From a virus (Duplodnaviria; Caudoviricetes), in the IMG/VR virus record IMGVR_UViG_3300021961_007533, positions 1-61,715 of that record: DNA of 61,715 bases. One strand, given 5' to 3'. This document shows, piece after piece, positions 13,269 to 41,159 of the stretch; the stretch's first letter is position 1, and each line of letters starts with the position of its first letter. Below the pieces are notes generated by a model. It was not told the origin of the DNA, searched no databases, and worked only from the letters and a program-made list of their open reading frames with translations. A program made the translations under genes and the position numbers.

Positions 13269-13269
13269 A

Positions 13270-13563: not shown

Positions 13564-13567
13564 AACA

Positions 13568-13598: not shown

Positions 13599-13611
13599 AA
13601 TTTTTTAAATA

Positions 13612-13639: not shown

Positions 13640-13660
13640 AAAATTAATTATATTAACCAA

Positions 13661-14056: not shown

Positions 14057-14094
14057 ATTAGTTTTTATTATAAATATCAATTTTTAAATAAAAA

Positions 14095-14322: not shown

Positions 14323-14324
14323 TA

Positions 14325-14822: not shown

Positions 14823-14869
14823 ATAACAAATTTACAAAAACTTTTTTGATTATAAAAATATTTATTAAT

Positions 14870-15676: not shown

Positions 15677-15741
15677 ATTTTATGTTTTATAGCACAAGTA
15701 TACAAAAAAATATAATTATAAAAAAATTTTAAAAAATATTA

Positions 15742-16203
15742 TTAACAATAAGGCGATGAACATCTTTTTTTACCATCTAATCCTGGTTTCTTACCCTGAC
15801 ATACTTGTACTGCGTACCCATTAGCATATGCGGAGGGGTAAACTTCGAATTTAGCTTTTGCTGCAGACTTTCCTCTAGCACATAATTTTGTTCCGGACTT
15901 TTTTCTTCCTTCCATAACCATATCCTCATCGTCTATATTCATAGATGACTCCATTCCATCTTTTTTTGATTCATTCATTATAAAATCAAAAACTTGATCC
16001 ATATTATTTTTGGCTTCAGCAATATGGTCTTGAGCCCAGTCATGACCACTTTCTAAAATCCCCTCAACCATTTCTGGGTCCAAGTCTAACAACAAATCAC
16101 ATTGTCTTCTCATTTGTTGTAGGTTTTGAAAAAACATATATCTACCTGAGCGATATTCGTTTTCTTCTCTTAAAACTTTTTTAATAATTCTATTTAAATT
16201 CAT
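15742..16203 (-). CDS. Hypothetical protein with IIKKVLRE leader and basic C-terminal YPSAYANG domain
   Basis: ORF at the end of the leftward structural operon. Confidence 0.7.
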   Translation of the reverse strand: MNLNRIIKKVLREENEYRSGRYMFFQNLQQMRRQCDLLLDLDPEMVEGILESGHDWAQDHIAEAKNNMDQVFDFIMNESKKDGMESSMNIDDEDMVMEGRKKSGTKLCARGKSAAKAKFEVYPSAYANGYAVQVCQGKKPGLDGKKRCSSPYC

Positions 16204-16208
16204 TTTAC

Positions 16209-16385
16209 CTAAGAGTTTAATCCATTACGACCGCCAAGAGCAATCATATTTAATTGTGTAACAGTACCCCCAGTTAAATCGCTATATACTGGATGTGGAG
16301 GGACAATTTGTACAACTGTATTAAGTGGGTCACCACAAATTTCTTGACAAATTATTGTTTCTGTATTTGCACTTGTTTCTGCCAT
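16209..16385 (-). CDS. Small hypothetical protein (58 aa, MAETSANTETIICQEICG...GGRNGLNS), not in ORF track
   Basis: Manual translation; fills the gap between two co-oriented genes. Confidence 0.6.
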   Translation of the reverse strand: MAETSANTETIICQEICGDPLNTVVQIVPPHPVYSDLTGGTVTQLNMIALGGRNGLNS

Positions 16386-16396
16386 ATCTTATTTTT

Positions 16397-17854: not shown

Positions 17855-17875
17855 TTGTCTTTTTTATAATAAATA

Positions 17876-19414: not shown

Positions 19415-19634
19415 TCCTAGAATTATGTTCTTTTAATAGTTTATTGTAGGTTAACTCTAGTCTATCTAGATGTTTTGTCATTTTAATCAAATGTTCTTTT
19501 GTGTTGTAAAAATCTAGTTTAACAAAACCAAGAGCCTTTTCCAAATCTTTATTAGACGAGTTCTTATAATCGGCAATAATTTTTAAAACATCATTAGCCA
19601 TAACCTTTTCATTTTCATTATAGTTTTTTTCCAT
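19404..19634 (-). CDS. Small coiled-coil hypothetical protein
   Basis: ORF overlapping both neighbours in the operon. Confidence 0.55.
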   Translation of the reverse strand: MEKNYNENEKVMANDVLKIIADYKNSSNKDLEKALGFVKLDFYNTKEHLIKMTKHLDRLELTYNKLLKEHNSRNGK

Positions 19635-21573: not shown

Positions 21574-21944
21574 TACTTATCAAGTTTATAATTTTTATCA
21601 GTAGAAATGTCTTTATCAATTAGATTTTTAAATAAATCACCATCTAAATCTAAATCAGAAAGAGTTAAATCATCTTGTTTTTCCTGTGATTTTTGCCAAA
21701 TTTGTGCCTGCAGTTTAGACAATGAAAGTTTCTTTTCGACACAATCATTTACAATTTTTTGTTGCTTTTCTATGATTGGACCAATTAAAGTCATGTCTTC
21801 AGGTTCCTTCATCATAGTTAACATTTTATTTTGAATCCTTATTGCAGTATTTCTCTGTTCCACTAACTCATTATAAATTTCTTGCATTAGAGATAGTAGT
21901 GAATCTTTAGTTAAATTAATCTTTTTTTTTGTTGGTCTTGGCAT
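21573..21944 (-). CDS. Hypothetical coiled-coil protein (123 aa)
   Basis: Late motif at 21951-21958 (-). Confidence 0.65.
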   Translation of the reverse strand: MPRPTKKKINLTKDSLLSLMQEIYNELVEQRNTAIRIQNKMLTMMKEPEDMTLIGPIIEKQQKIVNDCVEKKLSLSKLQAQIWQKSQEKQDDLTLSDLDLDGDLFKNLIDKDISTDKNYKLDK

Positions 21945-26202: not shown

Positions 26203-27174
26203 TTATTTATTATAATAATTTAACCAGTAGGAAATCATCTCATCTAACATAGACTCAAATGTGTACTCAGGTTCCCATAATAATTCTTTCCTTAATTTTG
26301 TAGAGTCCCCTTTAAGGTTTTCTAATTCCTCTGGTCTCATATGTTTTTCATCTATCTTAATATAATCTAAATAGTTTAAATCTAATTCGTCAAAAACGTA
26401 CTTACATAAATCCATAACAGAATGTGAAATACCTGTGGCGCATACATAATCATCTGGTTTATCTGTTTGTAACATCATCCACATTGCCCTCACATAGTCT
26501 TTGGCATGTCCCCAGTCTCTTGTTGCAGATAAATTACCTATTGATAGTTTTTCTTGTAAACCTAATTTAATTCTTACCGCTGCTTTAACCACCTTATTAG
26601 TTACAAAGTTTGTTCCTCTTCTTGGTGATTCATGGTTAAAAAGAATCCCATTCCATATTTTCATACCATAAGAATTTCTATAATTTCTTGTTATATTGTA
26701 TGAAAATACTTTAGCGCACCCATATGGTGAAACAGGGTTCATAGGAGTTGTTTCTCTTTGATAACCATCACTATCAATGTTATTACCAAACATTTCTGAT
26801 GAAGAAGCCTGGTATACCTTAGATTTAGGTGATACCATTCTAATCGCTTCTAACAAATTAAGTACACCTAATCCAGTTGCGTTTGCGGTATATATTGGCT
26901 GATCAAAACTAACCTTAACGTGTGATTGTGCCGCCAAGTTATATATTTCATTAGGTTGTATTTTTTGTAATACACTAACTAGTGAAGCCATATCAGTTAA
27001 ATCGGCATATTCTAAATTAATTTTATCAAAAATATGATCTATTCTAACTGATTGTGTTTCTGATACAGAATTTCTTTTTACAATACCCCACACTTCATAA
27101 CCTTTATCTAAAAGAAATTCAGCTAAGTATGAACCGTCTTGTCCATTTATACCTGTTATTAAAGCTTTTTTCAT
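26203..27174 (-). CDS. gmd: GDP-mannose 4,6-dehydratase
   Basis: ALITGINGQDGSYLAE, YNLAAQSHVKVSF, QASSSE, SPYGCAK, LFNHESPRRG, RDWGHAKDYV. Confidence 0.96.
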   Translation of the reverse strand: MKKALITGINGQDGSYLAEFLLDKGYEVWGIVKRNSVSETQSVRIDHIFDKINLEYADLTDMASLVSVLQKIQPNEIYNLAAQSHVKVSFDQPIYTANATGLGVLNLLEAIRMVSPKSKVYQASSSEMFGNNIDSDGYQRETTPMNPVSPYGCAKVFSYNITRNYRNSYGMKIWNGILFNHESPRRGTNFVTNKVVKAAVRIKLGLQEKLSIGNLSATRDWGHAKDYVRAMWMMLQTDKPDDYVCATGISHSVMDLCKYVFDELDLNYLDYIKIDEKHMRPEELENLKGDSTKLRKELLWEPEYTFESMLDEMISYWLNYYNK

Positions 27175-28346
27175 GTTTGGTACGCAAAGTTTAAAATTCT
27201 TGTTATTGTGTTAATGTCGGTTTCAGATAAGTCTTGGTGGTTTGGTACGTAGAAACCGTATTTATCTATTAGTTCACAGTTGGGTAAATCTTTTTGATCT
27301 TTATCCCACATAGGTTTATTTGCCATATTACCAGCGATTAAAGGTCTAACTTCAATATTAGATTCCTGTAGGGCTTTAACTAAGTAATTTCTTTCATTAT
27401 GGATTACTGGTATGGCAAAACTAGAAACGTAGTCACCCTCACGTTCAACCAACCGTAACTTACTGGTTAACATTAAATCTTTATATTTAAAGAAATTATT
27501 TCTTCTCTTTTCACTATACTCATCCAACCTATCAATAGCCTTAAGACCAATAAAAGCTTGTAGGTCTGTAGAACGTAGATTCATACCAGGTACATAGAAA
27601 TTATATAAGGCTTCAAAATCCGAACACCCATACTCTTCTCTAAGTTCCTTTTGTTTCCACTCAGGTAAATCCCTATCCCAACCATGACTTCTCATCATCA
27701 ACAACAAGTGATAGAAATCCTCATCATCTGTGTTAATGAAACCACCCTCAATAGTGGATAAGTGGTGCCCGAAATACATTGAAAAGAATGAAGCAAACCC
27801 AAAACTACCTAGATACTTACCTTGGTATTTAGACCCCATACTCTCACACACATCTTCTAATAACAATACACCATATTCTTCACATAAACGAAGAACTTCA
27901 TCCATTTGTGGTACTAAGCCTAGTGGAGAAACCAAAATCATAACTGACGGATTATGTTCCACAAATAATGATTCTAGATGGTTTAAATCACAAGAAAGAT
28001 CAGTTAAATTACAATCACACATAACTGTGTCGTAACCTAACAACATAGGTGAGCTAACATCCGTAGCCCAACTTAAAGCTGGTACCACGATTTTGTTGTT
28101 TTTTAATTTTCCTAATTGTTTTAATGCTGCTAATGTTAATAAGATTGACGATGAACCAGAATTCACAAACACCGAATACTTGGTACCAATCTTTTTAGCC
28201 CATTTTTTTTCCAATTCCCAAGTTAATTCACCCTTAGTGAGTCTTGGGATTTCATCTTGGGATAACCATTCAACTAAACTATTGATGTCATCTCTATTGA
28301 TTGTATCACTTACTAATTTTATCATATACTTTTTTAATTCCTTCAC
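27171..28346 (-). CDS. colD: GDP-4-keto-6-deoxy-D-mannose 3-dehydratase (ColD-like, PLP-dependent DegT family); true start probably 28325
   Basis: LLEDVCESMG, FSMYFGHHLSTIEGG with His where DegT aminotransferases have the Schiff-base Lys, RSHGWxRxL, PGxNLR; about 385-390 aa; lies between gmd and an fcl-like gene. Confidence 0.8.
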   Translation of the reverse strand: MKELKKYMIKLVSDTINRDDINSLVEWLSQDEIPRLTKGELTWELEKKWAKKIGTKYSVFVNSGSSSILLTLAALKQLGKLKNNKIVVPALSWATDVSSPMLLGYDTVMCDCNLTDLSCDLNHLESLFVEHNPSVMILVSPLGLVPQMDEVLRLCEEYGVLLLEDVCESMGSKYQGKYLGSFGFASFFSMYFGHHLSTIEGGFINTDDEDFYHLLLMMRSHGWDRDLPEWKQKELREEYGCSDFEALYNFYVPGMNLRSTDLQAFIGLKAIDRLDEYSEKRRNNFFKYKDLMLTSKLRLVEREGDYVSSFAIPVIHNERNYLVKALQESNIEVRPLIAGNMANKPMWDKDQKDLPNCELIDKYGFYVPNHQDLSETDINTITRILNFAYQT

Positions 28347-29208
28347 TTAAAGATATTGTCTTAAAGTCAGGAAGTAAATTCTTAAGTTTATCAATTGATA
28401 CATCTTTTCTATATTGACCATCAGGTTTTGTTGAGTCGAAAATAATTTTGGTTTTGGGTAATCCACAAGAATTTAAAGCAATTTCAGCAATCCCCTTTAT
28501 TGATAAGTTATCTTCTGTTGCTACATTAAAATTTTCGTATATACCTCTTTCTAAACACTCATTAATAACCCAGGCTAAGTCATCTGAATGTATAAACTGC
28601 CTTAAAGGATTACCAGTACCAAATAATTCTAACTGATTACTACCTTCTTCCTCCATTTTAACTATTTTCTTAACTAAGGCAGCAATAAAATGACTATTCT
28701 TCCCAAATTTATCGTTCTCACCATATAAGTTACAAGGTATTAGGTATTGATATTTGGTTCCATATTGTTCGTTACAAGCGTCAATGTGTACAGCCAAACA
28801 TCTTTTAGCGTAACCATATGAGAAGTTTGTTGGGGTGGGTGGTCCTTGATGTAACATCTCTTCAGTCATTGGATATTCCTCTACTTTATTGGGGTAAATA
28901 CAAGTACTTAATATACCAATAAACCTTTTAACACCTGTAATTCTAGACCACTTAACTATATTAGTGTTCATTTGTATGTTATCTACAAAATACGTATCAG
29001 GGTTTTCTATGTTATCAATAATACCACCAACCTTAGCTGCTAAATGTATAACAACATCAAAATTGTTTCTACTCATTAATAAGGCTACTTCATTTTCATT
29101 GGTTAAATCACAATCTTTAGAGGATAGGTATGTGGCGTTAGGTAAAAACTTTTTTAAAGACTTACCAACCATTCCAGATCCACCAGTAACTAAAATCTTT
29201 TTACTCAT
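28306..29208 (-). CDS. fcl: GDP-L-fucose synthase family epimerase/reductase (Fcl / ColC)
   Basis: VTGGSGMVG, HLAAKVGGI, STCIYP, YGYAK, PCNLYGEND, SHFIAAL, PLRQFIHSDD. Confidence 0.88.
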   Translation of the reverse strand: MSKKILVTGGSGMVGKSLKKFLPNATYLSSKDCDLTNENEVALLMSRNNFDVVIHLAAKVGGIIDNIENPDTYFVDNIQMNTNIVKWSRITGVKRFIGILSTCIYPNKVEEYPMTEEMLHQGPPTPTNFSYGYAKRCLAVHIDACNEQYGTKYQYLIPCNLYGENDKFGKNSHFIAALVKKIVKMEEEGSNQLELFGTGNPLRQFIHSDDLAWVINECLERGIYENFNVATEDNLSIKGIAEIALNSCGLPKTKIIFDSTKPDGQYRKDVSIDKLKNLLPDFKTISLSEGIKKVYDKISK

Positions 29209-29962
29209 TTGTACTATTTTTAATAAATTCTAGATAATCGACATAAGGAAAAATTCCATTAACTCTTGACCCATCGGTACATGAGTTAATATTAACTTTA
29301 ATTCTCTTTCCTAGCTTAGCTATATTTTGATATGGCGACAAGTCATTACCAGCAACACCGGTTAAATTACTTTTAGAGGTCATATGACCCTTTCCATGGT
29401 AATTACTAATATAATGGTTTGGATCATTATCTGATGTGAATATCACCTTTGGTTTACCTTTATGCTCTCCTTCGGTATAAACACCATCAACCCTAACGTC
29501 TATTCTTGGGGCATATCTGGCGTCAACACCAACTAACCCTATGTTGTCATAACCCAACATAATTGCTATTTGTATTACATATGCTGTAACACTGTATTGT
29601 ATTGGTAGATTGTTAATTTTATTTGGTATTTTATTTTCCCACTCATTAAACTTAACGTAACTACCAAATCCAGTAACCACACTAACTCGTTCATCATCAA
29701 TTTGAGCAAACTTAAAATCGTCTTTAAGATCACATAGGAAAAATTTCTTAATGTATTTATTAGTCTTAACCAACTCCTTAATATCATCAACTAAAAACCT
29801 AGTAGAATTACCATCGATAATACAGTAATATGTTGGACTAAAGCCCCATTCATCATAAGACATAAACGCACCATTAACTGAGAATGTATCGATACCTTTT
29901 AATTTATCAATATCTATTTTATTCAACGATGGACCATTACCCATTATTATACAACTCTTCAT
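29201..29962 (-). CDS. Sialyltransferase-fold protein (GT42/Maf/DUF115-like)
   Basis: IIMGNGPSLNKID start and QIAIMLGYDNIGLVGVD, as in CstII-type and Maf proteins. Confidence 0.65.
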   Translation of the reverse strand: MKSCIIMGNGPSLNKIDIDKLKGIDTFSVNGAFMSYDEWGFSPTYYCIIDGNSTRFLVDDIKELVKTNKYIKKFFLCDLKDDFKFAQIDDERVSVVTGFGSYVKFNEWENKIPNKINNLPIQYSVTAYVIQIAIMLGYDNIGLVGVDARYAPRIDVRVDGVYTEGEHKGKPKVIFTSDNDPNHYISNYHGKGHMTSKSNLTGVAGNDLSPYQNIAKLGKRIKVNINSCTDGSRVNGIFPYVDYLEFIKNSTNE

Positions 29963-30777
29963 TCCTTAATTTTTTTATAAACCCATTCATCCGGTAATAA
30001 GAATTCCTTAGCCTTAGCAAGGTTAGCCTTGATATATGGTAGCATTTCATTATATCTTTCTTCTGTTAAACTATTAACTAAACCTAGTACATTTGAGATG
30101 TCTTCAATATTATCAACAATAATAAAGCCTCTAGTGTCGAAGAAATCACCTATTGATGGACAACCCCAATATATTGGGACAGTTCCAGTTACTAAACAAT
30201 CGATAAGTTTTTCAGTAAACCAATAATCACGTTTACAGTTTTCAATAACAATATGGAACATATAATCTTTAAGACCATCTAATTTATAAACTAATGGATT
30301 GTACTTTCTACCATATACATCAAAATTAGTTAGGTGTCTATGTGTACTAATTACTTGATGTCTTAACTTATGACCGCTAGTTTCGGTCTTGTTAGATGCT
30401 ATGATACTAATAAATTTTGACTTTGGCCACATTCTTTGGTCTTCTAGTTTAATCCAACAACAACCAAATGGAACAAAAGTATATGGACTACCTAAGTCTA
30501 GTAATGTTTTTTCGTGTGTAAAAACCTTATAAAAAAAATGTTCATTTTGTTTAATTATACTATAATTTTTAGGTGAAATATCAACAGGCTCTATTAACCA
30601 CGCATAGTTTTTACCAATATCGTTTTTTTTAACAAGATTAAGAGTCATATCGGTATAAACTATATCACCACTAATGTTATTTCTATCCCACACAAACTGT
30701 TTTGATGTTTGAAAGTCGCTACAGTACCCTAATTTCGAATGACTAAAAGATTTATCAACAATACTTATTTTATCCAT
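29959..30777 (-). CDS. Glycosyltransferase family 10 (alpha-1,3/4-fucosyltransferase-like)
   Basis: YMFHIVIEN...YWFTEKLIDC...GTVPIYWG GT10 signature. Confidence 0.85.
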   Translation of the reverse strand: MDKISIVDKSFSHSKLGYCSDFQTSKQFVWDRNNISGDIVYTDMTLNLVKKNDIGKNYAWLIEPVDISPKNYSIIKQNEHFFYKVFTHEKTLLDLGSPYTFVPFGCCWIKLEDQRMWPKSKFISIIASNKTETSGHKLRHQVISTHRHLTNFDVYGRKYNPLVYKLDGLKDYMFHIVIENCKRDYWFTEKLIDCLVTGTVPIYWGCPSIGDFFDTRGFIIVDNIEDISNVLGLVNSLTEERYNEMLPYIKANLAKAKEFLLPDEWVYKKIKE

Positions 30778-31783
30778 TTAAATAATCTTTTAATATTTCT
30801 TTAATTATATTTGGGTTTTCTTGTGTTAGAAACATATTACCAAGACCTTTGGTTAAAACTAACCCAAAAGTTAGGTCTATGTTTTTCTTGTCTTTACTTA
30901 AAGCATTCATCATATCATCTAATTCGATATGTGGTAATTCCTTTATTTTATGTACGTACTTTAAAACATCGTACATTTCATCGTACTCTTCTTTATTTAT
31001 ATACCCTAGACTCATTGAAACGTAGTTAGACATATCCATACCATATGAAACAGCAATTCCATGTGGAATATCATAACTTGTTATCGACTCAATTGCATGA
31101 CCAAAAGAATGTCCATAATTAAAAACACGTCTAGGGCCAATATCAAATTCATCAATCTCAACCATACGTTTTTTAATTTTTAAACTATGTTGTATTAGTG
31201 ATTTTACGTCAAGTTGATCTATATTGAATAAATAATCTCTAAAAAAGTCAAATGACTCTTTACCATCTATAAAAAAATAATGCGCCATTTCACCTATACC
31301 TGAATACGTTTGTAGTGTTGTTAGAGTTTTTAGAAAATTAGTATCTATTATGATTTTATGTGGTGGATAAAATCCGCCTATTTGATTTTTATACTCACCA
31401 AAATTTATAGATGTCTTACCTCCAATACAACTATCACCTTGAGCTAATAATGTTGTTGGGAAGAAAACCCATTTAACACCTCTATAAAGAATTGAGGATA
31501 TAAAACCTGATATATCTTGTACCACGCCACCACCTATTGCTATAATTTTATTGTTCTTTCTAAACCCACATTCAATAATATTATTAATTATTGATGTTAT
31601 GTAACTATATTCTTTACTACGTTCAGTGGCGTCTACAACAAATTTTGGGTTGTCTTGTATAACTTTCCAAAAATCACCTAATAGATTACCATCAACAATT
31701 ATATAATCACCTTTATCCACTTCTATATCATTTATAGAACCAAACTCAACCATATAATTATGTACACTAGATTTTATTTCCAT
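30770..31783 (-). CDS. AroB / 3-dehydroquinate-synthase-like sugar phosphate cyclase
   Basis: GGGVVQD, PTTLLAQGDSCIGGKTSIN, KNQIGGFYPP, NYGHSFGHAIE, HGIAV; EMAH in place of the usual ExxK. Confidence 0.85.
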   Translation of the reverse strand: MEIKSSVHNYMVEFGSINDIEVDKGDYIIVDGNLLGDFWKVIQDNPKFVVDATERSKEYSYITSIINNIIECGFRKNNKIIAIGGGVVQDISGFISSILYRGVKWVFFPTTLLAQGDSCIGGKTSINFGEYKNQIGGFYPPHKIIIDTNFLKTLTTLQTYSGIGEMAHYFFIDGKESFDFFRDYLFNIDQLDVKSLIQHSLKIKKRMVEIDEFDIGPRRVFNYGHSFGHAIESITSYDIPHGIAVSYGMDMSNYVSMSLGYINKEEYDEMYDVLKYVHKIKELPHIELDDMMNALSKDKKNIDLTFGLVLTKGLGNMFLTQENPNIIKEILKDYLNG

Positions 31784-32463
31784 TACATATTAATTGTATA
31801 TCCACCATCAACCACTATGTTTTGTCCTGTAACATACGTGTTTAAGTCACTAACAAAAAAACTAACTAAATTTGCTATATCCTCCACTTCGCCAAACCGG
31901 TTCATAGGGATTCTTTCAACTAGGTAGTCTTTATCTGATTGAGTTAACATTGAATCGGTTAATTCTGTATTGGTAAATCCTGGTGATATAGAATTAACTA
32001 AAATACCATATGGTGCCAAATCACAAGCCATAGTTCTAGTCATACCATTTAAACCACTTTTAGATGTGGTATAGGACAATCTTCCTTGGGAAGAACCAGT
32101 TCCTTTTATTGATGATATGTTTACTATTCTACCATACCCTCTTTTTTTCATACCCTCACAAACAACTTGAGTCACTCTAAAAGGTCCATATAGGTTAACT
32201 TTCTGTACTTTGTCGAAATCTTCGTAAGAAACATCACCGATAAAATTATTAATACATATACCAGCGTTGTTTACTAATATATCAATATCAGTGTCTTTGA
32301 TTTTATCTAAGAAGTTTTTAGTGGATTCTTCATTTGAAAAATCCACTTCACTAGTACTAGTTCGTATAACTTTAGCACCATAAGATTCTAGTTTATCACT
32401 AATGGCTTTACCTATGCCTCTAGAACCACCAGTTACTAACGCCTTTTTTCCATTTAAATTCAT
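31783..32463 (-). CDS. Classical SDR oxidoreductase (FabG-like)
   Basis: TGGSRGIG, LVNNAG, YTTSK, NSISPG, TGQNIVVDGG. Confidence 0.9.
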   Translation of the reverse strand: MNLNGKKALVTGGSRGIGKAISDKLESYGAKVIRTSTSEVDFSNEESTKNFLDKIKDTDIDILVNNAGICINNFIGDVSYEDFDKVQKVNLYGPFRVTQVVCEGMKKRGYGRIVNISSIKGTGSSQGRLSYTTSKSGLNGMTRTMACDLAPYGILVNSISPGFTNTELTDSMLTQSDKDYLVERIPMNRFGEVEDIANLVSFFVSDLNTYVTGQNIVVDGGYTINM

Positions 32464-33077
32464 TACTTAGTTGGGTTTCTATCAATACTTTCCGCGGCAC
32501 CTTTTCTCACTACCTCATCTTTTATTGATGGGCATTGTGCGCCACAAGCATGAATTAAATCATAAAATAATATTAAAGTAAGTACCTCAACAGTATGAAA
32601 ATACTTACATTCTAAATTTATTTCATTAACTTTTTCTGGGAGTACTTGACTTTTAGCGCCAGATATTAAAGCCGATTTAAAACCATTTTTTTTTGCCCAA
32701 TGTAAACAAGATATTACATTCTTAGAGTTGCCTGAACAAGATAATGCAATAATCATAACTTTTTTACCATCCATTTTCCCTGTCTGTTTTGCTAAATCTA
32801 ACCAATTAAGGAATAGGTTATTATAACCATAATCGTTAGCAATACTAGTAATCAAACATTGACTTTCCATTGTGGAAATATGTTTCTTAATACCAGCTTT
32901 TGCAAAAAGTCTTGTACAGTCATCCGCCGCATGATTACCAACCGCCCATAATCCACCATTAGCGACTATATAAATGTCATCGCATTCATTAAAATCCTTT
33001 ACAAATTTTTCCCACTCTTTTGTTGTTAATGTTTTTTCGAATTTTTCTTCAATATTTTCAAAATCAATATTTGACAT
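32463..33077 (-). CDS. SIS-domain sugar-phosphate isomerase, GmhA-like (divergent)
   Basis: ANGG...H, TSIANDYGY, SCSGNSKNV motifs. Confidence 0.75.
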   Translation of the reverse strand: MSNIDFENIEEKFEKTLTTKEWEKFVKDFNECDDIYIVANGGLWAVGNHAADDCTRLFAKAGIKKHISTMESQCLITSIANDYGYNNLFLNWLDLAKQTGKMDGKKVMIIALSCSGNSKNVISCLHWAKKNGFKSALISGAKSQVLPEKVNEINLECKYFHTVEVLTLILFYDLIHACGAQCPSIKDEVVRKGAAESIDRNPTK

Positions 33078-33139
33078 AATAATTATTTTTTATAATTATA
33101 ATTATAATTATATTTTTTTTAATTTAAAGTTTTTATTTA

Positions 33140-34321
33140 TTATTTTACATATACATGTGCCATTTCTTTTCCACCACAAGCTAATCTAACACCAGGTTCA
33201 TCACTAATACAAGAAATAATGTGTACAGTTCCTTTAGGTAAAAATACTAAATTACCTGATTTTGCGACTATTATTTTATCGGGACTTCCTTTTGGGTTTT
33301 CTCTATTGTACCATAATTTATATTCAAACTCACCCCTATAGATAACCCACCATTCATCTTTAGTGGGATGATAATGTTTTCTACAACCTTTACCTTTAGA
33401 TTGTCTTATAAAAGCGATTTGATCATTATCGGTATAAACTACAGGGTAACACCAATCATCATCACCTAGTTTTTTTTCTATCTCATCTAAATCCATTAAG
33501 GTTTCATTATGACCTAATACATCTTCTGATGGTATTGGTGATCCGTCTAACGCTATTAAATCAACTAAAGCAGATTCAATAGAAGTTATATTATTATGGT
33601 AATAAAATTTACCAACACTATCTTTTCTTTTTCTATGATTTAAACAAGCTTCTGCAATGTACAATTCATCCATTGTGTCTACATCTATAGCCTCTATTTT
33701 ACTTATAGGGAAGTACCCAAATTCCCCACAAAAAGTAGGCCCTGTTTCATATTCTTTTATAAAAGTTTCTTTTTTCCACCCTGTCATTGCCCAGCAAATA
33801 GAATCTACTGGTGATAATGACTGTGTTTCTTGTTTTTTCTTAGGGTTAAAATTTATGGGTTTACCATCCATAAAACTCTCAGAGTATGTTTGTTCTGTCG
33901 TTACTAGAGAATCGTAATATTCTAGTTTTTTAGAAAAATTATATATTGTTTTAGGTTCTAACAATGGCGATGTTGTGTGTACTTGTATTATGTAATCACA
34001 TTCTATATTCTTAATAAAATCATAAAGAAAATGATCATGTATTGTACATCTATTACCACCACAATCCTTAGAATTATTTATCATAGTACATTTAGAACCA
34101 CCATTTTTTTCATCTCTATAATAAAACTTAACACCTAATTCTTTGGCTATTTGTTTAAAAATTAAGCTATCTGAATTAATATATATTTCATCAAAAGCTT
34201 CTGATTTTTTACAAGACTTTACAACATAGTATATTAATGGGAAACCGTCAACTAACATTAGGTTTTTGTTAGGTACTCTAGTACTATTTAATAACGCTGG
34301 TATTACTGCGACTTTTTTCAT
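33140..34321 (-). CDS. CMP-ulosonate synthetase-like cytidylyltransferase (NeuA/KdsB family) fused to a C-terminal cupin
   Basis: VIPALLNSTRVPNKNL, YINSDS, TTSPLL, EAIDVDT; cupin motifs HYHPTKDEWW and PKGTVH. Confidence 0.8.
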   Translation of the reverse strand: MKKVAVIPALLNSTRVPNKNLMLVDGFPLIYYVVKSCKKSEAFDEIYINSDSLIFKQIAKELGVKFYYRDEKNGGSKCTMINNSKDCGGNRCTIHDHFLYDFIKNIECDYIIQVHTTSPLLEPKTIYNFSKKLEYYDSLVTTEQTYSESFMDGKPINFNPKKKQETQSLSPVDSICWAMTGWKKETFIKEYETGPTFCGEFGYFPISKIEAIDVDTMDELYIAEACLNHRKRKDSVGKFYYHNNITSIESALVDLIALDGSPIPSEDVLGHNETLMDLDEIEKKLGDDDWCYPVVYTDNDQIAFIRQSKGKGCRKHYHPTKDEWWVIYRGEFEYKLWYNRENPKGSPDKIIVAKSGNLVFLPKGTVHIISCISDEPGVRLACGGKEMAHVYVK

Positions 34322-34349
34322 TTTTAAGTGTATTGTATATGTTGATTTT

Positions 34350-35132
34350 TTATAAAAATAAATTTTTGGTTAGATACTTATCTAGCTTTATTATTTCCTT
34401 ATTTTCGTTATATAATTTTTTAAAATATTCTATTTGGGGTTTTTGTTTATGTATTTTATGTGCATGACTATCTTTATCTATATTTTGACCAGAACTTTCT
34501 ACCGAATCTTTATAGTCATCATAGTAAATATCACCAAACTTACCCATATTATAAAACGTTAAACCGGCAACGTAGAGTTCCTTTATATTATAGTTCATTA
34601 AAAAAATAATACCCATTAACCCACTATTTGGCACAGTCCCAACGTCTTTAAACACCTTATAGATATATCTATCATTTAGTCTTGTAGAATTTACACCATC
34701 CCTAATTAATTTCTCAAAGAAATTAATTTTAGGTTGATAGTTAGAACTAGGCATAACCCCTATAATGTGTTGAAAAGACTTTATATATTCATAATTTTTA
34801 TCGCACTCTTTAATGTTTTCACTATTAAAACTACCTATTAGTATGTCATTTCTAGATCCGTAATCTTTTTCATTTTTGGTTGAAAGTTTAAATTTTTGAT
34901 TTACTCTTACCACAACATCATATGAGTCTATTAGATTACCATCACCCAAACCAATTAAGGATGGTGCTGGACCCACTAACGCAACTCTTTTATTTGTTAC
35001 AATATTTTCTATATTAGGGATTTTAGTGTGTTCCATAAACCCATTTACATCTTTAATTAAAGAATGATTGGGTGTACCTGGTTCTATAGTTATTGAATCC
35101 CACTTATTCATTTTTTCATATAGTTTACCCAA
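34350..35132 (-). CDS. GT29-like sialyltransferase-fold glycosyltransferase
   Basis: Sialylmotif-L-like VALVGPA...IDSYDVVVRVN, S-like PNSGLMGI...GLTFY, C-terminal His. Confidence 0.65.
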   Translation of the reverse strand: MGKLYEKMNKWDSITIEPGTPNHSLIKDVNGFMEHTKIPNIENIVTNKRVALVGPAPSLIGLGDGNLIDSYDVVVRVNQKFKLSTKNEKDYGSRNDILIGSFNSENIKECDKNYEYIKSFQHIIGVMPSSNYQPKINFFEKLIRDGVNSTRLNDRYIYKVFKDVGTVPNSGLMGIIFLMNYNIKELYVAGLTFYNMGKFGDIYYDDYKDSVESSGQNIDKDSHAHKIHKQKPQIEYFKKLYNENKEIIKLDKYLTKNLFL

Positions 35133-35728
35133 ACATAATTATATTCATATGTTGGTATGAATGACTCCCTTATCACAGTTTCAATTAGAACCTTTCTATT
35201 ATCATAGTCTTTACCATACCTATGAAATTGTATTTGTAGATTGTTAAAAATGGATAAATTATTACCTTCAATAAGACCCTCTAAAATGTTATACTCCTCA
35301 CCCTCAACATTTAATTTCATTAAATCGACTTTACTTAGGTTTAATTTTTTTAATGTCTGATTAATATCAACAAGTTTAATAGTTTCTTTTGTACCATTAT
35401 TAGTATAAATAGATGACGCATCATTCTCTATCGAAATATCAACACTCCTATCCATATTGGATAGACCATAGTTGTGAACATACACCTTATCGTTACCATT
35501 AAATTTTTCCTTTATTATGTCATAAAACTTTTTAACAGGCTCAAAAATATGAATTGTACATTTATACTTTTCAAATATGTCGCTTGCCCATTCACCTTTA
35601 TAACCACCGCCATCGATAACTATTGAGTTTTCATTTAGATTATAATTTAACCTAAGTGTTTTATCTCCATTATTTAATTTCCATTGTTCTACTAACTTGT
35701 GATGATTCATAATTAAAGTTTTATCCAC
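35108..35728 (-). CDS. FkbM-family SAM methyltransferase
   Basis: VIDGGGYKG, IFEP, DLMKLNVEGEEY, QIQFH. Confidence 0.85.
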   Translation of the reverse strand: MDKTLIMNHHKLVEQWKLNNGDKTLRLNYNLNENSIVIDGGGYKGEWASDIFEKYKCTIHIFEPVKKFYDIIKEKFNGNDKVYVHNYGLSNMDRSVDISIENDASSIYTNNGTKETIKLVDINQTLKKLNLSKVDLMKLNVEGEEYNILEGLIEGNNLSIFNNLQIQFHRYGKDYDNRKVLIETVIRESFIPTYEYNYVWVNYMKK

Positions 35729-36483
35729 CCATCTGGATATAAGTCTTTTGTTGGTAAATTATTTTTTGCATTACCAAACCATATACGTGGGATTATTATT
35801 TTTTTATTTTTGTTTTTATTTAACCAGGCGCCCCACCATGAAAATGTTGAGTTCGCTATAATATTGTTGTCACATAAACTCATTAAATATATATCAATAT
35901 AATCTTTTTCGTTTTCTATAAAAACAAAGTTATTACCTTTAAAATTTTTTTTACACCAACCAATATCATCTGAAAAAACTAAAAAAGTATGATCATTACC
36001 AATAATATTAATCGCACTTTTATAATAATCAATGGCACATATTGGGTGATGATTTTGTAGATTTAAATAGTCTCCACGTCTAACATGTATCGAACAAGTT
36101 TTTTTATTAAGGATGTCTTTATATTTGTTATTAATATAAGACAAATCGTTATCTGTTGCCGAAAATAAATCTATAATTAAGTTTCTATTATGTAAAAAGT
36201 ACTTTTCAGACTGGAAGTAACCATTTAGTTTTGTATTATCTCTTATTGAGATTTTTTTATAGCTAAATTCTGGTTCAGTATATAAAAATTCTTGGGTAAA
36301 ACTAAGGTCAAATTTTAATTTCCTAAAGACATTATTTTTATAGTAGTTAATGCTATTATGTTTTTTTAAATAATTTTTTGTACTAAATGTTATGTCAAAT
36401 CCATAATCCTTAGATAGTGAATAAGTTGTCGCAATCTGAAACATATAATTACCTAACCCACCCTGTAAATAACAACTAATCAT
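35713..36483 (-). CDS. Glycosyltransferase family 11 (alpha-1,2-fucosyl/colitosyltransferase)
   Basis: GGLGNYMFQ, GYFQSEKYF, SIHVRRGDY, FSDD, IIANSTFSWWGAWL. Confidence 0.92.
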   Translation of the reverse strand: MISCYLQGGLGNYMFQIATTYSLSKDYGFDITFSTKNYLKKHNSINYYKNNVFRKLKFDLSFTQEFLYTEPEFSYKKISIRDNTKLNGYFQSEKYFLHNRNLIIDLFSATDNDLSYINNKYKDILNKKTCSIHVRRGDYLNLQNHHPICAIDYYKSAINIIGNDHTFLVFSDDIGWCKKNFKGNNFVFIENEKDYIDIYLMSLCDNNIIANSTFSWWGAWLNKNKNKKIIIPRIWFGNAKNNLPTKDLYPDGWIKL

Positions 36484-36485
36484 AA

Positions 36486-37106
36486 CTATTTAAATAACCA
36501 TCTATTATCCATAAATTTATTTTCAATGTCACTATAACTAGGTCGTTGGGTCGCAATATTAGGGTAGAACCCATAACAATTAAATGATTTTTGTAAATCA
36601 CAATAATAAACATCTATAGGTTTTTTCTTTTTAGATATTAATTTTGGGATAACATCAAACATAGATTTATTTATTATTACTGCGTGTGTCGCATACGTAG
36701 AGTGTAGTTTAATTATCTTATCGTTAATCTTATTAACTAATTTACCCATATGTAAATTATGGTTACCACCTAGCCAAACCATATCGTAATCTTTAGGGAG
36801 TTGATTATAATAGTCCGCAAAAAGATCTATATTTTTAGTAAATTCAACATCATCTTCTAATATTAAAATATTATCATAGTTCTTCTCTTTAGCGTCATTA
36901 ATAATTTTAATATTAGTTTCTATCAAACCAACATTACCTAAACTAATTGGGTATTCACCTATTATATCACTCCCATCAATAGCGCTATACCTCTCAACTT
37001 GATTTAATAATCCCCATTTATTTAATTCATTAACTGTCTCGTCCCAGCGATCTTTTCTCCGGTCTAAATTTATACAGTATATCTTATCAAAATATTTATT
37101 CAACAT
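36486..37106 (-). CDS. Glycosyltransferase family 25
   Basis: YCINLDRRKDRW, AIDG, LILEDD, THA, PIDVY. Confidence 0.85.
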   Translation of the reverse strand: MLNKYFDKIYCINLDRRKDRWDETVNELNKWGLLNQVERYSAIDGSDIIGEYPISLGNVGLIETNIKIINDAKEKNYDNILILEDDVEFTKNIDLFADYYNQLPKDYDMVWLGGNHNLHMGKLVNKINDKIIKLHSTYATHAVIINKSMFDVIPKLISKKKKPIDVYYCDLQKSFNCYGFYPNIATQRPSYSDIENKFMDNRWLFK

Positions 37107-37107
37107 A

Positions 37108-37680
37108 TTAAAAACCTACTTTATAATAAATTTCATCTGTTACAATAAAATTATTTGTTTTATTTAAAATTTCCATTACAACATCAAAGTCCTCACCATC
37201 TCTATTGTTTCTAAATCTTAATCCCTCATCTAAAAATTTCCTTTTAAATGAGACTGAAATACCAACATTACCAAAATACAATCTATTATCGTTAAGTCTA
37301 GGAATTATTAAATCTCTTTTATAATACTTCATCCTCCAAATAACTAAATCTAAATCCTTATACTTAGATAGTAATGTCTCAACGTATTTTGGTTCTATGG
37401 TATCATCATCATCCAAAAACCCAACCCAATTAGTATCACATATATCTAGACCATAATTTCTAACTAACCCAGATTGACCATGGTTACGACCAAATTCACC
37501 AGTCTTATTTATCTTAACAACTTTAATTTTTTCAGAAGAGTAATCATAATCTGGATTAACACCATCAAAAATAATAATAGCAAACCACCTATCACTTGTT
37601 TGGTTATTTAAAGAGTCTATTGTTCTTTTTAATGTTTCCCTATTAATAGATGGTATTATGAATGTAATTGAATCTTCCAT
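37108..37680 (-). CDS. Glycosyltransferase family 2
   Basis: TFIIPS, RNYGL, FLDDDD, EDFD. Confidence 0.8.
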   Translation of the reverse strand: MEDSITFIIPSINRETLKRTIDSLNNQTSDRWFAIIIFDGVNPDYDYSSEKIKVVKINKTGEFGRNHGQSGLVRNYGLDICDTNWVGFLDDDDTIEPKYVETLLSKYKDLDLVIWRMKYYKRDLIIPRLNDNRLYFGNVGISVSFKRKFLDEGLRFRNNRDGEDFDVVMEILNKTNNFIVTDEIYYKVGF

Positions 37681-37694
37681 GTTACAAATAAATT

Positions 37695-39212
37695 CTATTG
37701 TGATATTGTTTTTATATATTTATCTAATTTATTTCTATTTTTAATATAAAATGGTTTTAAATTATTTGTATAATCTATTATAAATTTTTTTTCTTTTTCG
37801 TTATCCAAATTCCTAGTTTGTGACTCATAGTGATACGCAACAGAATTACCATCACAGATATTCTCAAACCCTAGTAAATTACACATTAAGTTTAATTCAA
37901 CGTCCTCTAGACAAGAGATATAGTTTTCATTAAAATAACCAAGGTTCTCAAATAAATTTTTTCTAATCATCATTAATCCACCTGTATTACCAATAACCAG
38001 ACTACTATTTAATTTAAAATTAAAATAGCTACCAAACCCAAGATGTCCTAACATCAATTCATTATTTTTAATATTATTATAGACAAAAATCCCATCGTGT
38101 TGTATTGTGTTGTCTTTAAAATGTAACCTAGCACCAATAGTACCAGTTCTTTTATTTTTTTTCATAATAGATAGCATACTATGAATAACATTGTTCATAA
38201 TTTTTATGTCGTTATTTGAAAATAAAATAAACTCGTAGCCCTTAGTTACGTAGTTCTTTACAACATCATTATTAATTTTTGCAAAATTATAATAATCATA
38301 TTCTATTAAGTTTACATTACCTAGTTTAAGTATGTTATTTTTAATCCAGGTCTTTTCCTCATCTGTTGACCCAGTGTCTGCAATAAAGACATCAAACAAA
38401 TCGGAATTACAATTTTGGTAAAATGAATTAATACAATCAAATAACATTTCAACATTACCCTTAGTTGGTATTATAATGGCCACTTTACCAATATTTTTAA
38501 TTGGTTTTTCTTTTATTTCTGGAACATATATATTCTCCGGTTTTAAATCAAGTGGCAACTTATCTCCCCATTTTTTTATAAACTTATTTTTACTTTCAAA
38601 AAACTCCTCGTTTGGTTGACCAACAGATTCGTGTGTAATATCAAATGATGATGTCACACCAATTTTAACATTATCCAAATAGTTAGGGACGCAAAATAAA
38701 TGATCATAAAAGTGGAACTTACCAATTGTCTCATCAAATTTATGTTTTATTTTTGTTTTATTAAAAGCCATAAATAAACCATCAATTGTTACAACTGGAA
38801 TTAAAAAAGGTAGTTTAGGTGAATATTTACTTAACCATTTTTTTTGATCTTCTAGGTGATGATAAACCTGACCTACCATTGTTTGTTGCATTTTTTCCCA
38901 GTAAACTCCAGATTCTGGAAAATAACAAGACCCTGCTTTACCAATTATACCAAAGTCTTGATTATTTTTAAAATCACCTAGTAATTTTTTACCCCAACCA
39001 TTTCCAAGTTTTATATCATTATGACAACAGACAACAATATCATAAATAGATTCTGTTATACCACTATTATAAACTTCAGCTAAACTATATTGATTATGAT
39101 TTACATATTCTAAAATCTGAACATTTTTTAAACCAACACTTTTTAATATGTGTGATTTAAAGTTTTTGTTATAGTCTTCGTCTTTATGTGTTGAATATAT
39201 TATCGTAATCAT
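37695..39212 (-). CDS. Two-domain GT2-type glycosyltransferase
   Basis: N-domain YNSGI...CHND...IDGLF...FHFYD; C-domain IIIPTK...FSNND...EDVELNL...HYESQTR. Confidence 0.8.
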   Translation of the reverse strand: MITIIYSTHKDEDYNKNFKSHILKSVGLKNVQILEYVNHNQYSLAEVYNSGITESIYDIVVCCHNDIKLGNGWGKKLLGDFKNNQDFGIIGKAGSCYFPESGVYWEKMQQTMVGQVYHHLEDQKKWLSKYSPKLPFLIPVVTIDGLFMAFNKTKIKHKFDETIGKFHFYDHLFCVPNYLDNVKIGVTSSFDITHESVGQPNEEFFESKNKFIKKWGDKLPLDLKPENIYVPEIKEKPIKNIGKVAIIIPTKGNVEMLFDCINSFYQNCNSDLFDVFIADTGSTDEEKTWIKNNILKLGNVNLIEYDYYNFAKINNDVVKNYVTKGYEFILFSNNDIKIMNNVIHSMLSIMKKNKRTGTIGARLHFKDNTIQHDGIFVYNNIKNNELMLGHLGFGSYFNFKLNSSLVIGNTGGLMMIRKNLFENLGYFNENYISCLEDVELNLMCNLLGFENICDGNSVAYHYESQTRNLDNEKEKKFIIDYTNNLKPFYIKNRNKLDKYIKTISQ

Positions 39213-39983: not shown

Positions 39984-40711
39984 TATTTTAATTCTTTTAA
40001 TGTTTTTATTACTTCAACTAAAACGTTGACATCTTTTTCACAGTATTCTGCGATTTTATCTAAGTTTCTTTTTTCCCAGTAGTTTTCATGAACATTCTCA
40101 CCACTTACTTCACCATCCTTTGGTGTTGGGATATCTAAACAAGAACATAATAAGTCCAATGACCCAATTGATGTATAGGCGCCATATTGCCAAATTTCTT
40201 TTGTGTCAATTGCTTTAACTTCCCAAGGCTTGGTATCATATGATGGTAAGATTTTAGAAGGTCTAATACCATTTACAATCATTCTTTTTGCAAGCATTGG
40301 AATATCAAAATTCTTTAAGTTATGTCCACATAAATGAAAGTCTAGTTTTTCACAACGATCAAGTAGATTTCTAACCTCAATTAATAATTGTGTCTCGTCT
40401 TCATTTGAGAATGTTTGTTTTTTAATCTCACCATTATCCATAACAAAAGCCATTGACACACAGATAACTTTTGCAAACTCTGGAACTAATGCGGCACGTT
40501 TTTTAAAAACATAGTTCATATGTTCTTCTGTTGTCATATTAATCTGTTCATTGGTCGCATCTTCTGGAAACCTTTTTAAAAACCAATTAAAGTATTTATC
40601 AAATTGGTCTGCTAGATTTGGATTAAACTTTTGGCATGACTCAAAATCAGGACAACCGCCAACAGTCTCGATGTCAAGGAATAAAATTTTTGTAATAGGA
40701 ATATTAATCAT
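39983..40711 (-). CDS. DEDD 3'-5' exonuclease (PolB-exonuclease-like)
   Basis: FLDIETV, GHNLKNFDIP, YCEKDV. Confidence 0.85.
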   Translation of the reverse strand: MINIPITKILFLDIETVGGCPDFESCQKFNPNLADQFDKYFNWFLKRFPEDATNEQINMTTEEHMNYVFKKRAALVPEFAKVICVSMAFVMDNGEIKKQTFSNEDETQLLIEVRNLLDRCEKLDFHLCGHNLKNFDIPMLAKRMIVNGIRPSKILPSYDTKPWEVKAIDTKEIWQYGAYTSIGSLDLLCSCLDIPTPKDGEVSGENVHENYWEKRNLDKIAEYCEKDVNVLVEVIKTLKELK

Positions 40712-41159
40712 TTTTTACTTCGTTATAAATTTTAGGATTTTGTTTTAGTGTCTGTATTGTAATTAAATCTTTTATTCTAGTTGTTGACCAACCATGTGAT
40801 CTAGTTGTATAAATAACCTCAATTGGAAGATGGTCACCTGTAAATCTATTACCAATGTAGTCATCACCTAATATTCTAACATCTGGTTTATAAAATTGTA
40901 TTAAACGAAGTAAATCATCTTCATCATCATAACATACTACCTCATCAATATATTTTATTGCCATTAGAGTTTTATATCTTTCATATAAAGGAATTACAGG
41001 TTTATATTTTGTAAACCTTGTTTCAGATGGGTCTCTTTGTAAAAAAACCATAAAATAATCACAATTTTCCTTTGCAGTTTCAAATGTGTATATGTATCCA
41101 GGGTGTAGTAAGTCAAAATTACCAGCAGTAAACCCTATTCTTCCTTTTTTACTATCCAT
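40704..41159 (-). CDS. HxGH-family cytidylyl/adenylyltransferase (TagD / RfaE-like)
   Basis: AGNFDLLHPGY, ER...IKYIDEV, GDDY, RSHGWSTTRIK. Confidence 0.8.
   Translation of the reverse strand: MDSKKGRIGFTAGNFDLLHPGYIYTFETAKENCDYFMVFLQRDPSETRFTKYKPVIPLYERYKTLMAIKYIDEVVCYDDEDDLLRLIQFYKPDVRILGDDYIGNRFTGDHLPIEVIYTTRSHGWSTTRIKDLITIQTLKQNPKIYNEVKND

Follow-up and report, generated by a model that had tools for sequence, protein, structure and literature searches.

Positions 29201-35132 of the 61,715-base IMG/VR virus record IMGVR_UViG_3300021961_007533 (Duplodnaviria; Caudoviricetes), the whole of which was analyzed and is called the window here, hold a cassette of seven genes on the minus strand. 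Its four central genes encode a SIS-domain protein, a short-chain dehydrogenase/reductase (SDR), an AroB-like enzyme of the dehydroquinate synthase (DHQS) superfamily (the cyclase, for short) and a cytidylyltransferase fused to a cupin (the CMP-transferase/cupin; CMP, cytidine monophosphate), and are the phage copy of a widespread, uncharacterized cassette. We propose, with moderate confidence, that the cassette is a route resembling the 3-deoxy-D-manno-octulosonate (Kdo) pathway and leads to a CMP-activated 3-deoxy-ulosonic acid, in which loss of the terminal phosphate would proceed by oxidation and beta-elimination, after which reduction of the ketone by the SDR would leave a deoxy end. The seven genes, in order of transcription, are:

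34350-35132, minus strand: GT29-like (sialyltransferase-fold) glycosyltransferase, putative user of a CMP-activated donor (PF00777, 22.7 bits)
33140-34321, minus strand: two-domain CMP-transferase/cupin (CTP_transf_3, 64.8 bits; Cupin_2, 21.8 bits)
32463-33077, minus strand: GmhA-like single SIS-domain protein, putative isomerase (gmhA TIGR00441, 47.6 bits)
31783-32463, minus strand: classical SDR ketoreductase (adh_short_C2, 178 bits)
30770-31783, minus strand: DHQS-superfamily enzyme of the TIGR04425 type (DHQ_synthase, 122 bits; DHQS_C, 108 bits)
29959-30777, minus strand: GT10-like fucosyltransferase (PF00852, 40.1 bits)
29201-29962, minus strand: MptE-like, Maf- or GT42-like putative ulosonic-acid transferase (PF01973, 44.7 bits; cut-off 34.6)

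The initial annotation of this DNA had proposed these seven genes as one module. All seven open reading frames (ORFs) are real, and the gene set recurs in other loci. Adjacent ORFs overlap by 1-8 nt or are separated by gaps of 28 and 62 nt, and with such junctions the seven genes are almost certainly co-transcribed. The family assignments also hold, with the caveats that the GT29-like match is marginal (gathering cut-off of 23 bits) and that the SIS protein is weakly GmhA-like (cut-off of 209 bits).

Taking a single genome for each species, a scan of bacteria gave 233 relatives, and scans of virus contigs added dozens of large-phage contigs. Neighbors were counted around cyclase homologues in 26 viral and 80 bacterial loci (within 6.5 kb for the SIS and GT29-like genes), with the bacterial neighbor families annotated with Pfam on representative loci. 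The counts are:

SDR directly upstream of the cyclase: 25 of 26 viral, 75 of 80 bacterial loci (one viral and six bacterial loci end there)
SIS protein near the cyclase: 26 of 26 viral, 66 of 80 bacterial
CMP-transferase near the cyclase: 23 of 26 viral, 71 of 80 bacterial
MptE-like transferase near the cyclase: 14 of 26 viral, 41 of 80 bacterial
GFO/IDH/MocA oxidoreductase near the cyclase: 1 of 26 viral, 67 of 80 bacterial
D-2-hydroxyacid dehydrogenase near the cyclase: 1 of 26 viral, 67 of 80 bacterial
YhcH/NanQ-family protein beside the CMP-transferase: 0 of 26 viral, 54 of 80 bacterial
HpcH pyruvate aldolase: 0 of 26 viral, 39 of 80 bacterial
PF04199 hydrolase: 0 of 26 viral, 37 of 80 bacterial
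Class-III aminotransferase: 23 of 26 viral, 2 of 80 bacterial
GT29-like gene: 20 of 26 viral, 2 of 80 bacterial

The core set recurs around the cyclase in every one of the 26 viral loci and in most of the 80 from bacteria, which is beyond chance. In evolution the cyclase is thus tied to three partners, namely the SDR, the SIS protein and the CMP-transferase, bearing out the initial annotation's treatment of them as a core set, and the SDR is its obligate partner. The cassette is widespread, occurring in many phages and as an operon in bacteria of many phyla, and is not unique to the phage of the window. The cupin is fused to the CMP-transferase in the phage versions, and in bacteria the HpcH aldolase and the PF04199 hydrolase share one position, downstream of the CMP-transferase. 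Most phage copies carry a class-III aminotransferase, which tblastn did not find in the window; the window therefore holds an aminotransferase-free, highly diverged phage copy of the cassette. In another phage lineage (loci L181-L187 and L189, around 7500-11800) an SDR-cyclase pair occurs with no detectable SIS or CMP-transferase/cupin gene. It is preceded by an unassigned 266-aa protein, for which a PDB sequence search gave no match, and followed by a thiamine diphosphate-dependent enzyme of 575-580 aa (acetolactate-synthase-like; PDB 8rph, 398 bits). This lineage may make a different use of the pair.

A key clue to the role of the SDR and cyclase comes from cassettes in which a phosphatase takes their place. 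Searching viral contigs with the CMP-transferase/cupin collected 55 viral loci, of which 26 have the cyclase without a HAD-family gene, 14 have a HAD gene without the cyclase, two have both and 13 neither; several of these last are incomplete or differently arranged. The HAD gene holds the exact slot of the SDR and cyclase in otherwise syntenic cassettes: locus L159 reads GT29, CMP-transferase/cupin, HAD, aminotransferase, SIS, and loci L136 and L142 read GT29, CMP-transferase/cupin, SDR, cyclase, aminotransferase, SIS. Wherever the phosphatase holds the slot, the SDR is lost jointly with the cyclase. The small HAD proteins carry the motif pattern DxDG..S..K..DD, and five of eight match HAD-IIIA models and four of eight the capsule phosphatase model TIGR01689. 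A PDB search with a single sequence gave no match, whereas a profile of these proteins matches PDB 9iqw (E 2.5e-9). Two cassettes of the cyclase type, L123 (10844-11155) and L154 (10898-11215), have a short HAD-like ORF (103-105 aa) beside the SDR-cyclase pair, which may be the remnant of a displaced phosphatase.

The exchange is seen most directly in two sister phages, L144 and L163, which are 95% identical across 11.6 kb. The slot is occupied by the SDR and cyclase in L144 and by a 178-aa protein matching KdsC and phosphatases of 2-keto-3-deoxynononate (KDN) 9-phosphate (E 9e-9 to 1e-7) in L163. The two phages are 98-100% identical in the flanking genes, 97.5% in the SIS protein, 93% in the GT29-like protein, 84% in the CMP-transferase/cupin and 81% in the class-III aminotransferase. 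This pattern of divergence fits an SIS protein acting before the swapped step, and a CMP-transferase and an aminotransferase acting after it. On a tree of 41 CMP-transferase/cupin proteins, HAD and cyclase labels are interspersed, the starred branches force at least five changes of the HAD label among seven rows, and the labels are no more clustered than in shuffles. Since the swap has recurred on this tree, closely related CMP-transferases would accept the product of either enzyme set.

Beside the cassette, both L144 and L163 encode an isomerase of the KpsF type as well as a true KdsA (309 bits; cut-off 242). Among 81 viral loci that we retrieved (L002-L027 plus L118-L172, with some contigs represented more than once), KdsA is found in three (L144, L145 and L163) and a gene like 3-deoxy-arabino-heptulosonate 7-phosphate (DAHP) synthase (DAHPS) in two, L126 and L127, both with the HAD-type cassette. 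The synthase of these two is type-I-beta DAHP-synthase-like, scoring 180 bits versus 76 for KdsA. In L126, two CMP-transferase genes, one short (5352-5960) and one cupin-fused (7995-9161), flank the DAHP-synthase-like gene and the class-III aminotransferase, an arrangement that occurs in some phosphatase-type cassettes.

The window itself encodes no ulosonate synthase. Family searches of the 61.7-kb record for DAHP_synth_1/KdsA, NeuB and HpcH gave no match, and tblastn of the record found no HAD, KdsC-like, KpsF-type SIS, DAHPS-like or inositol-monophosphatase (IMPase)-like gene, so the initial annotation was right that the window has no NeuB or KdsA synthase. The record is about 21% of the phage genome (CheckV estimate), and these absences therefore apply to the record and not to the whole phage. 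A relative with a cyclase-type cassette (G010; 165 kb, 98% complete) has neither a KdsA/DAHPS nor a NeuB gene; a near-complete genome of this kind indicates that the precursor can come from the host.

The cyclase scores best against TIGR04425, a hypothetical equivalog named 'AroB-related putative sugar phosphate phospholyase (cyclizing)', at 380.1 bits over profile positions 1-345 of 348, a near miss 20 bits short of the cut-off of 400. Against the aroB model TIGR01357 it scores 263.9 bits, under the equivalog cut-off of 305. Homologues at about 50% identity are found in bacterial chromosomes of many phyla, and NCBI gives the TIGR04425 name to bacterial operon copies such as that of Chlorobium limicola. 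The window cyclase shares its clade and neighborhood (SDR upstream, SIS, CMP-transferase) with the bacterial members. The function attached to the TIGR04425 family is only a curator's guess. In a tree of 58 sequences (a quick IQ-TREE search with midpoint root), six canonical AroB proteins split from 52 cassette cyclases with a support of 100 in the Shimodaira-Hasegawa-like approximate likelihood ratio test (SH-aLRT). The window cyclase, which is 80% identical to one metagenome protein, lies in a set of 27 (SH-aLRT 95) with Bacteroidota-type operon copies, and the majority of phage cyclases form another clade of 14. The gene has therefore been acquired by phages more than once.

These results bear on an ordinary reading, close to what the initial annotation had named as its refutation, that the cyclase is an auxiliary phage AroB feeding the aromatic biosynthesis of the host, with the CMP-transferase independently activating host Kdo, Kdn or N-acetylneuraminic acid (Neu5Ac). 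The score of 264 bits to the aroB model and an active site that looks competent speak for it, as do aroB-like sequences in some phage-database records, though most of these look like host DNA: tblastn with the cyclase found 16 records, all below 60% identity and many evidently bacterial DNA. Nevertheless, the cyclase scores below the aroB cut-off and higher against TIGR04425, and it groups apart from canonical AroB. All five operon-bearing bacterial genomes examined keep a separate canonical aroB (327-388 bits, above the cut-off), while their operon copies score 246-271 bits to the same model, below it. In addition, the pairing of the cyclase with the SDR is invariable, its gene is linked to that of the CMP-transferase, the SDR and cyclase are exchanged as a unit with a phosphatase, and the Pfam scan of ORFs from 12.4 to 45.1 kb showed no further shikimate gene, although no family search was aimed at such genes. 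The cyclase is a paralogue of AroB and not the housekeeping enzyme, and we consider the auxiliary AroB scarcely credible.

How far its chemistry has departed from that of AroB is a separate question. In PDB the cyclase matches DHQS at 166 bits, DOIS (BtrC) at 105, EEVS ValA at 100 and DDGS at 82. Cassette cyclases were aligned with E. coli AroB and five canonical AroBs, using Aspergillus nidulans numbering. Every cassette cyclase aligned retains R130, D146, K152, N162, E194, K250, R264, N268, H271, H275, H287 and K356, and the equivalent of K197 is an invariant His. By the numbering and roles that we assume, these positions form the DHQS active site, comprising the metal ligands and the residues that bind the carboxylate and phosphate of DAHP. 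Six metagenome proteins (P0121-P0126; 617-643 aa) have an N-terminal cassette-type cyclase, 40-51% identical to that of the window, fused to an inositol-monophosphatase-family domain (PF00459). Such fusions were looked for on viral contigs and not found. A separate IMPase-like gene is rare, with clear matches in one or two of the 80 bacterial loci; one stands free in the operon of locus L076 (11183-11923).

Such an active site could also belong to an enzyme that closes a carbocycle. With an ulosonate 7-phosphate of seven carbons, similar to DAHP, as its substrate, the AroB-like enzyme would then be a true cyclase whose product is a dehydroquinate-like carbocycle, which the SDR would reduce to a quinate-like cyclitol acid; its tertiary hydroxyl next to the carboxylate would be CMP-activated like the anomeric hydroxyl of Kdo, and the product would be transferred or serve as a stable sugar mimic. 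The retention of all assumed DHQS positions except K197 and the closeness to DHQS among solved relatives both argue for this, as do the word 'cyclizing' in the curators' family name, the DAHP-synthase-like gene inside one cassette type, the inositol-dehydrogenase-like GFO enzyme of the bacterial operons and the rare fusions to an inositol-monophosphatase-family domain. However, the DAHPS-like gene sits in the phosphatase-type and not the cyclase-type cassette, and a HAD/KdsC-like phosphatase repeatedly substitutes for the SDR and cyclase beside closely related CMP-transferases and, in the sister phages, a GT29-like gene that is 93% identical. The product of a phosphatase retains its ring oxygen, which favors an ordinary ring-oxygen sugar. 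A mutarotating sugar is likewise implied by the anomerase-type protein of the YhcH/NanQ family, which adjoins the CMP-transferase at 54 of 80 bacterial loci. By established glycosyltransferase chemistry, moreover, transfer of the sialyltransferase type should require an oxocarbenium-like center, which would be impossible for a saturated carbocycle. We regard carbocycle formation as possible and on balance doubtful. The boldest form of the idea, in which a true cyclizing DHQS paralogue yields a CMP-activated quinate-like 'carba-ulosonic acid' that phages and many bacteria would install on surface glycans as a non-hydrolysable mimic, is in our judgment unlikely. If true, primary glycan assembly would gain its first nucleotide-activated carbasugar acid, a new class of glycan building block that calls for new transferase chemistry.

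The CMP-transferase/cupin consists of a cytidylyltransferase domain (approximately residues 1-230) and a metal-binding cupin (approximately residues 290-393). The CTP_transf_3 (PF02348) score is well above the gathering cut-off of 22.6 bits, with a match that spans just the N-terminal 126 of 217 profile positions, and the Cupin_2 score is under the cut-off of 27.2. The KdsB and PseF models give 51-54 bits with cut-offs of 193-255, so the protein belongs to the Pfam family and to neither of these equivalogs. A Foldseek search with an AlphaFold2 model (mean predicted local distance difference test, pLDDT, of 76) is led by CMP-Kdn, CMP-Neu5Ac and CMP-pseudaminic acid (Pse) synthetases, followed by KdsB, with template modeling scores of 0.69-0.78 depending on the target; CMP-nonulosonate and CMP-Kdo synthetases rank above the IspD and GlmU types. 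This search with the full two-domain model found matches to the transferase domain only. The cupin retains its metal site, His-x-His...Glu...His, as invariant H316, H318, E323 and H367. Modeled as a domain (pLDDT 86), it resembles generic small cupins (E about 1e-6), among them cupin-type phosphoglucose, phosphomannose and lyxose isomerases and the cupin of CapF (epimerase domain), neighbors so generic that no specific function can be read from them. The window protein is 31-38% identical to its relatives and has a very long branch in the tree. It differs from all relatives by two insertions: one in the transferase domain, which is Cys-rich and about 20 residues long, and one of 10 residues in the cupin.

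The SIS protein gives no match in a Pfam search and, at 47.6 bits to TIGR00441, lies outside GmhA proper. Aligned to E. coli GmhA, it retains S119, S121, S124 and H61. In all cassette SIS proteins E65 is replaced by Asp and Q172 by Glu, and in the phage copies H180 is replaced by Tyr. We take the three serines to be the phosphate-binding residues of GmhA, and Glu65 and His180 to be catalytic. These residues suggest that the SIS protein binds a phosphosugar and is not GmhA. With the presumed catalytic residues changed, a sedoheptulose-7-phosphate substrate, which the initial annotation had drawn from the likeness to GmhA, is not implied.

The likeness to GmhA nevertheless raises the possibility of a nucleotide-activated non-ulosonic sugar, for example of the heptose or aminosugar type, made with a GmhA-like SIS protein and a GmhB-like HAD enzyme as in the nucleoside diphosphate-heptose route, with the 'CMP-transferase' acting on a sugar phosphate. 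Two of the eight small HAD proteins match the heptose 1,7-bisphosphate 7-phosphatase model (E 2e-4), the window encodes an RfaE-domain-II-like nucleotidyltransferase (40704-41159, 69.5 bits), and the partial CTP_transf_3 match would be in keeping with such a role. Against this, no sugar kinase was found by Pfam in the annotated cassettes of representative loci, and among the structural matches of the transferase, the IspD and GlmU types come behind the synthetases for CMP-nonulosonates and CMP-Kdo. The sister cassettes have a KdsC-like phosphatase, KdsA and DAHPS-like synthases, the GT29-like and GT42-like partners suggest CMP-ulosonate donors, and the presumed GmhA catalytic residues are altered. 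A non-ulosonic donor thus appears quite improbable. Two further candidates were dropped: an aminocyclitol-antibiotic pathway, which lacks a DOIS or EEVS signature and does not suit a setting of glycan assembly, and a phosphonate pathway, for which no phosphoenolpyruvate (PEP) mutase was seen among the ORFs scanned.

The Kdo-like route that we favor can be written as six steps. The SIS protein would isomerize a phosphosugar before phosphate removal. A PEP- or pyruvate-dependent aldolase outside the window, supplied by the host or by a phage KdsA/DAHPS-like gene as in some relatives, would form a 3-deoxy-2-ulosonate omega-phosphate; in other cassettes the candidates for this synthase are KdsA, DAHPS-like and HpcH enzymes. 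The AroB-like enzyme, with bound NAD+ and metal, would run through the DHQS sequence of hydroxyl oxidation, elimination of the terminal phosphate and re-reduction, in place of hydrolysis, leaving a keto, deoxy end; the ring would not be closed to a carbocycle. The SDR would reduce the ketone. The cupin, in an isomerase- or anomerase-like role, and the NeuA/KdsB-like domain would then give the CMP-sugar, and the GT29-like and MptE/GT42-like enzymes would move the sugar onto the glycan built by the surrounding 20-kb island. The product would be an ulosonic acid deoxygenated at its terminus, in concept a parallel to legionaminic acid with its 9-deoxy end, though formed by other means. The identities and coupling of the genes, the AroB paralogy and the exchange with a phosphatase are observed, and from them we infer the substrate, the sequence of steps, the lack of ring closure and the target glycan. 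More generally, an unusual CMP-activated acid sugar, as the initial annotation proposed, remains the likely output.

Several points weigh against this route. To our knowledge, substrate or product has been seen for no member of the cyclase family. Nearly all of the residues that we assume to bind the carboxylate and phosphate of DAHP in DHQS are invariant in the cassette cyclases, which suggests a substrate of seven carbons. When DHQS chemistry acts on such a substrate, spontaneous cyclization is expected, favoring a carbocyclic product. By our own reasoning, Kdo-8-phosphate in its pyranose form would have no free hydroxyl at the position needed for DHQS chemistry, and the role of the SIS protein would go unexplained if the substrate were host DAHP or Kdo-8-phosphate. 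With no synthase in the window or in G010, the pathway must lean on an unnamed host intermediate. The six cyclase-IMPase fusion proteins are not explained by a Kdo-like scheme, and, like the unexplained part played by the SIS protein, they fit a carbocyclic product poorly too. Finally, the CMP-transferase of the window is a long-branch outlier and the aminotransferase is missing, making inference from relatives indirect.

The outer genes of the cassette are transferases. The GT29-like protein gives no match in a PDB sequence search; its nearest ESM Atlas clusters, viral PF00777 families in which 67-75% of members have PF00777, score 0.95-0.97, and the true start of its ORF is possibly seven codons further in. 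The MptE-like protein scores 18.5 bits against the CST-I model, and its residues 1-150 weakly match Campylobacter jejuni Cst-II in PDB (E 0.003). The initial annotation counted the GT10-like gene as part of the module. GDP-fucose (GDP, guanosine diphosphate) genes lie directly downstream of it, and GT10 occurs near the cyclase in just nine of the 26 viral loci; it probably belongs to the surrounding glycan-assembly island and its GDP-fucose genes and not to the donor pathway.

The cassette lies in the middle of this glycosylation island, which extends over about 20 kb (21959-42373, minus strand) and holds at least ten glycosyltransferase genes (four GT2, two GT4-like, GT10, GT11, GT25, GT29-like and MptE-like) together with genes for an FkbM methyltransferase, a GDP-mannose dehydratase, a DegT aminotransferase, a GDP-fucose-synthase-like reductase and the RfaE-domain-II-like nucleotidyltransferase. 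Genes for PhoH, a dUTPase and a PolB-type exonuclease are scattered among them. The sets adjoining the cassette are:

26203..29208, minus strand: GDP-mannose 4,6-dehydratase (GDP_Man_Dehyd, 406 bits), DegT aminotransferase (185 bits) and GDP-fucose-synthase-like epimerase/reductase (Epimerase, 162 bits)
35108..39212, minus strand: FkbM methyltransferase, GT11, GT25 and two GT2 (Pfam matches), the upstream context within the same island

The GDP-sugar genes are of the GDP-fucose/perosamine type, with the GDP-L-fucose synthase model scoring 202 bits against the set, under its cut-off of 500. They are a separate donor pathway and form context for the cassette.

At 1.5-11.7 kb the window encodes a large terminase, a portal protein and a T4-type major head protein, the last closest to that of Flavobacterium phage immuto (38% identity), followed by Microcystis and Prochlorococcus myophages. 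The head protein (9868-11670) has 600 aa, with a PHROG head-protein match confined to residues 340-577, so that a long N-terminal extension precedes the match. Nine ORFs at 12441-21944, which separate the head genes from the island, gave no Pfam match at E 0.01, and three large ones among them (485, 512 and 651 aa) gave no PHROG match either.

In the open-access literature searched, we found no paper on this module, none on the accession TIGR04425 and none combining 'dehydroquinate synthase' with nonulosonic or Maf terms, in agreement with the initial annotation's view that the pathway is undescribed. If the Kdo-like route is correct, ulosonic-acid biosynthesis has taken over an enzyme of the shikimate pathway in place of a phosphatase, turning a dephosphorylation into a deoxygenation, and its product represents an undescribed family of CMP-activated sugars. 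Because the cassette is widespread in bacteria and phages, a common surface-glycan component is probably missing from glycan inventories. In phage-host conflict, such sugars could help a phage to disguise its virions or to alter the surface of the host as a defense against superinfection and grazers. Sister phages that differ only by having a phosphatase or an AroB-like enzyme with an SDR provide a natural design for finding the substrate.

The cassette is best placed among the CMP-ulosonic-acid pathways, as a version of its own. It follows the same logic as the CMP-Kdo pathway (KdsD, KdsA, KdsC, KdsB), with the same enzyme classes for the isomerase, phosphate removal and CMP activation, and L163 has a KpsF-type SIS protein, a true KdsA, a KdsC-like phosphatase and the cassette CMP-transferase side by side. 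In contrast to CMP-Kdo synthesis, the window cassette uses a DHQS-family enzyme and an SDR for the phosphatase step, its SIS protein is GmhA-like and not KpsF-like, its transferase is fused to a metal cupin and has a fold more like NeuA than KdsB, and no synthase is encoded in the window. The cassette cyclase has the fold of AroB (EC 4.2.3.4; e.g. PDB 3CLH), keeps the presumed metal ligands and nearly all presumed substrate positions, and presumably performs the same NAD+-dependent oxidation and phosphate elimination; it differs in the K197-equivalent His and in serving glycan biosynthesis in place of the shikimate pathway. EEVS ValA, DDGS, EVS and DOIS BtrC share its superfamily and overall chemistry, yet are more distant in sequence than DHQS (82-105 versus 166 bits). 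The equivalents of N268 and K356, which we believe vary in the sedoheptulose-7-phosphate cyclases, are DHQS-like in the cassette cyclase.

Two other routes to modified ulosonic acids offer partial parallels. In the branch of Shewanella leading to 8-amino-Kdo (Kdo8N), the oxidase KdnB, of the Fe-dependent alcohol dehydrogenase/DHQS-like superfamily, acts on the terminal carbon of the ulosonic acid and is followed by the aminotransferase KdnA. The latter resembles the class-III aminotransferase of 23 of the 26 viral cassettes, although KdnB presumably oxidizes free Kdo with no phosphate elimination, and the window has no aminotransferase. The cyclase of the ebo operon (PMC5133447) belongs to a different clade and context from the cassette cyclase. 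In the legionaminic and pseudaminic acid pathways, the end product is likewise a CMP-activated, terminally deoxygenated, sialic-acid-like sugar with transfer by Maf/GT42- or GT29-like enzymes. Their deoxy end, however, arises from a nucleoside diphosphate-sugar 4,6-dehydratase before a NeuB-type condensation, whereas the deoxygenation proposed for the cassette would take place on an ulosonate phosphate, with no NeuB.

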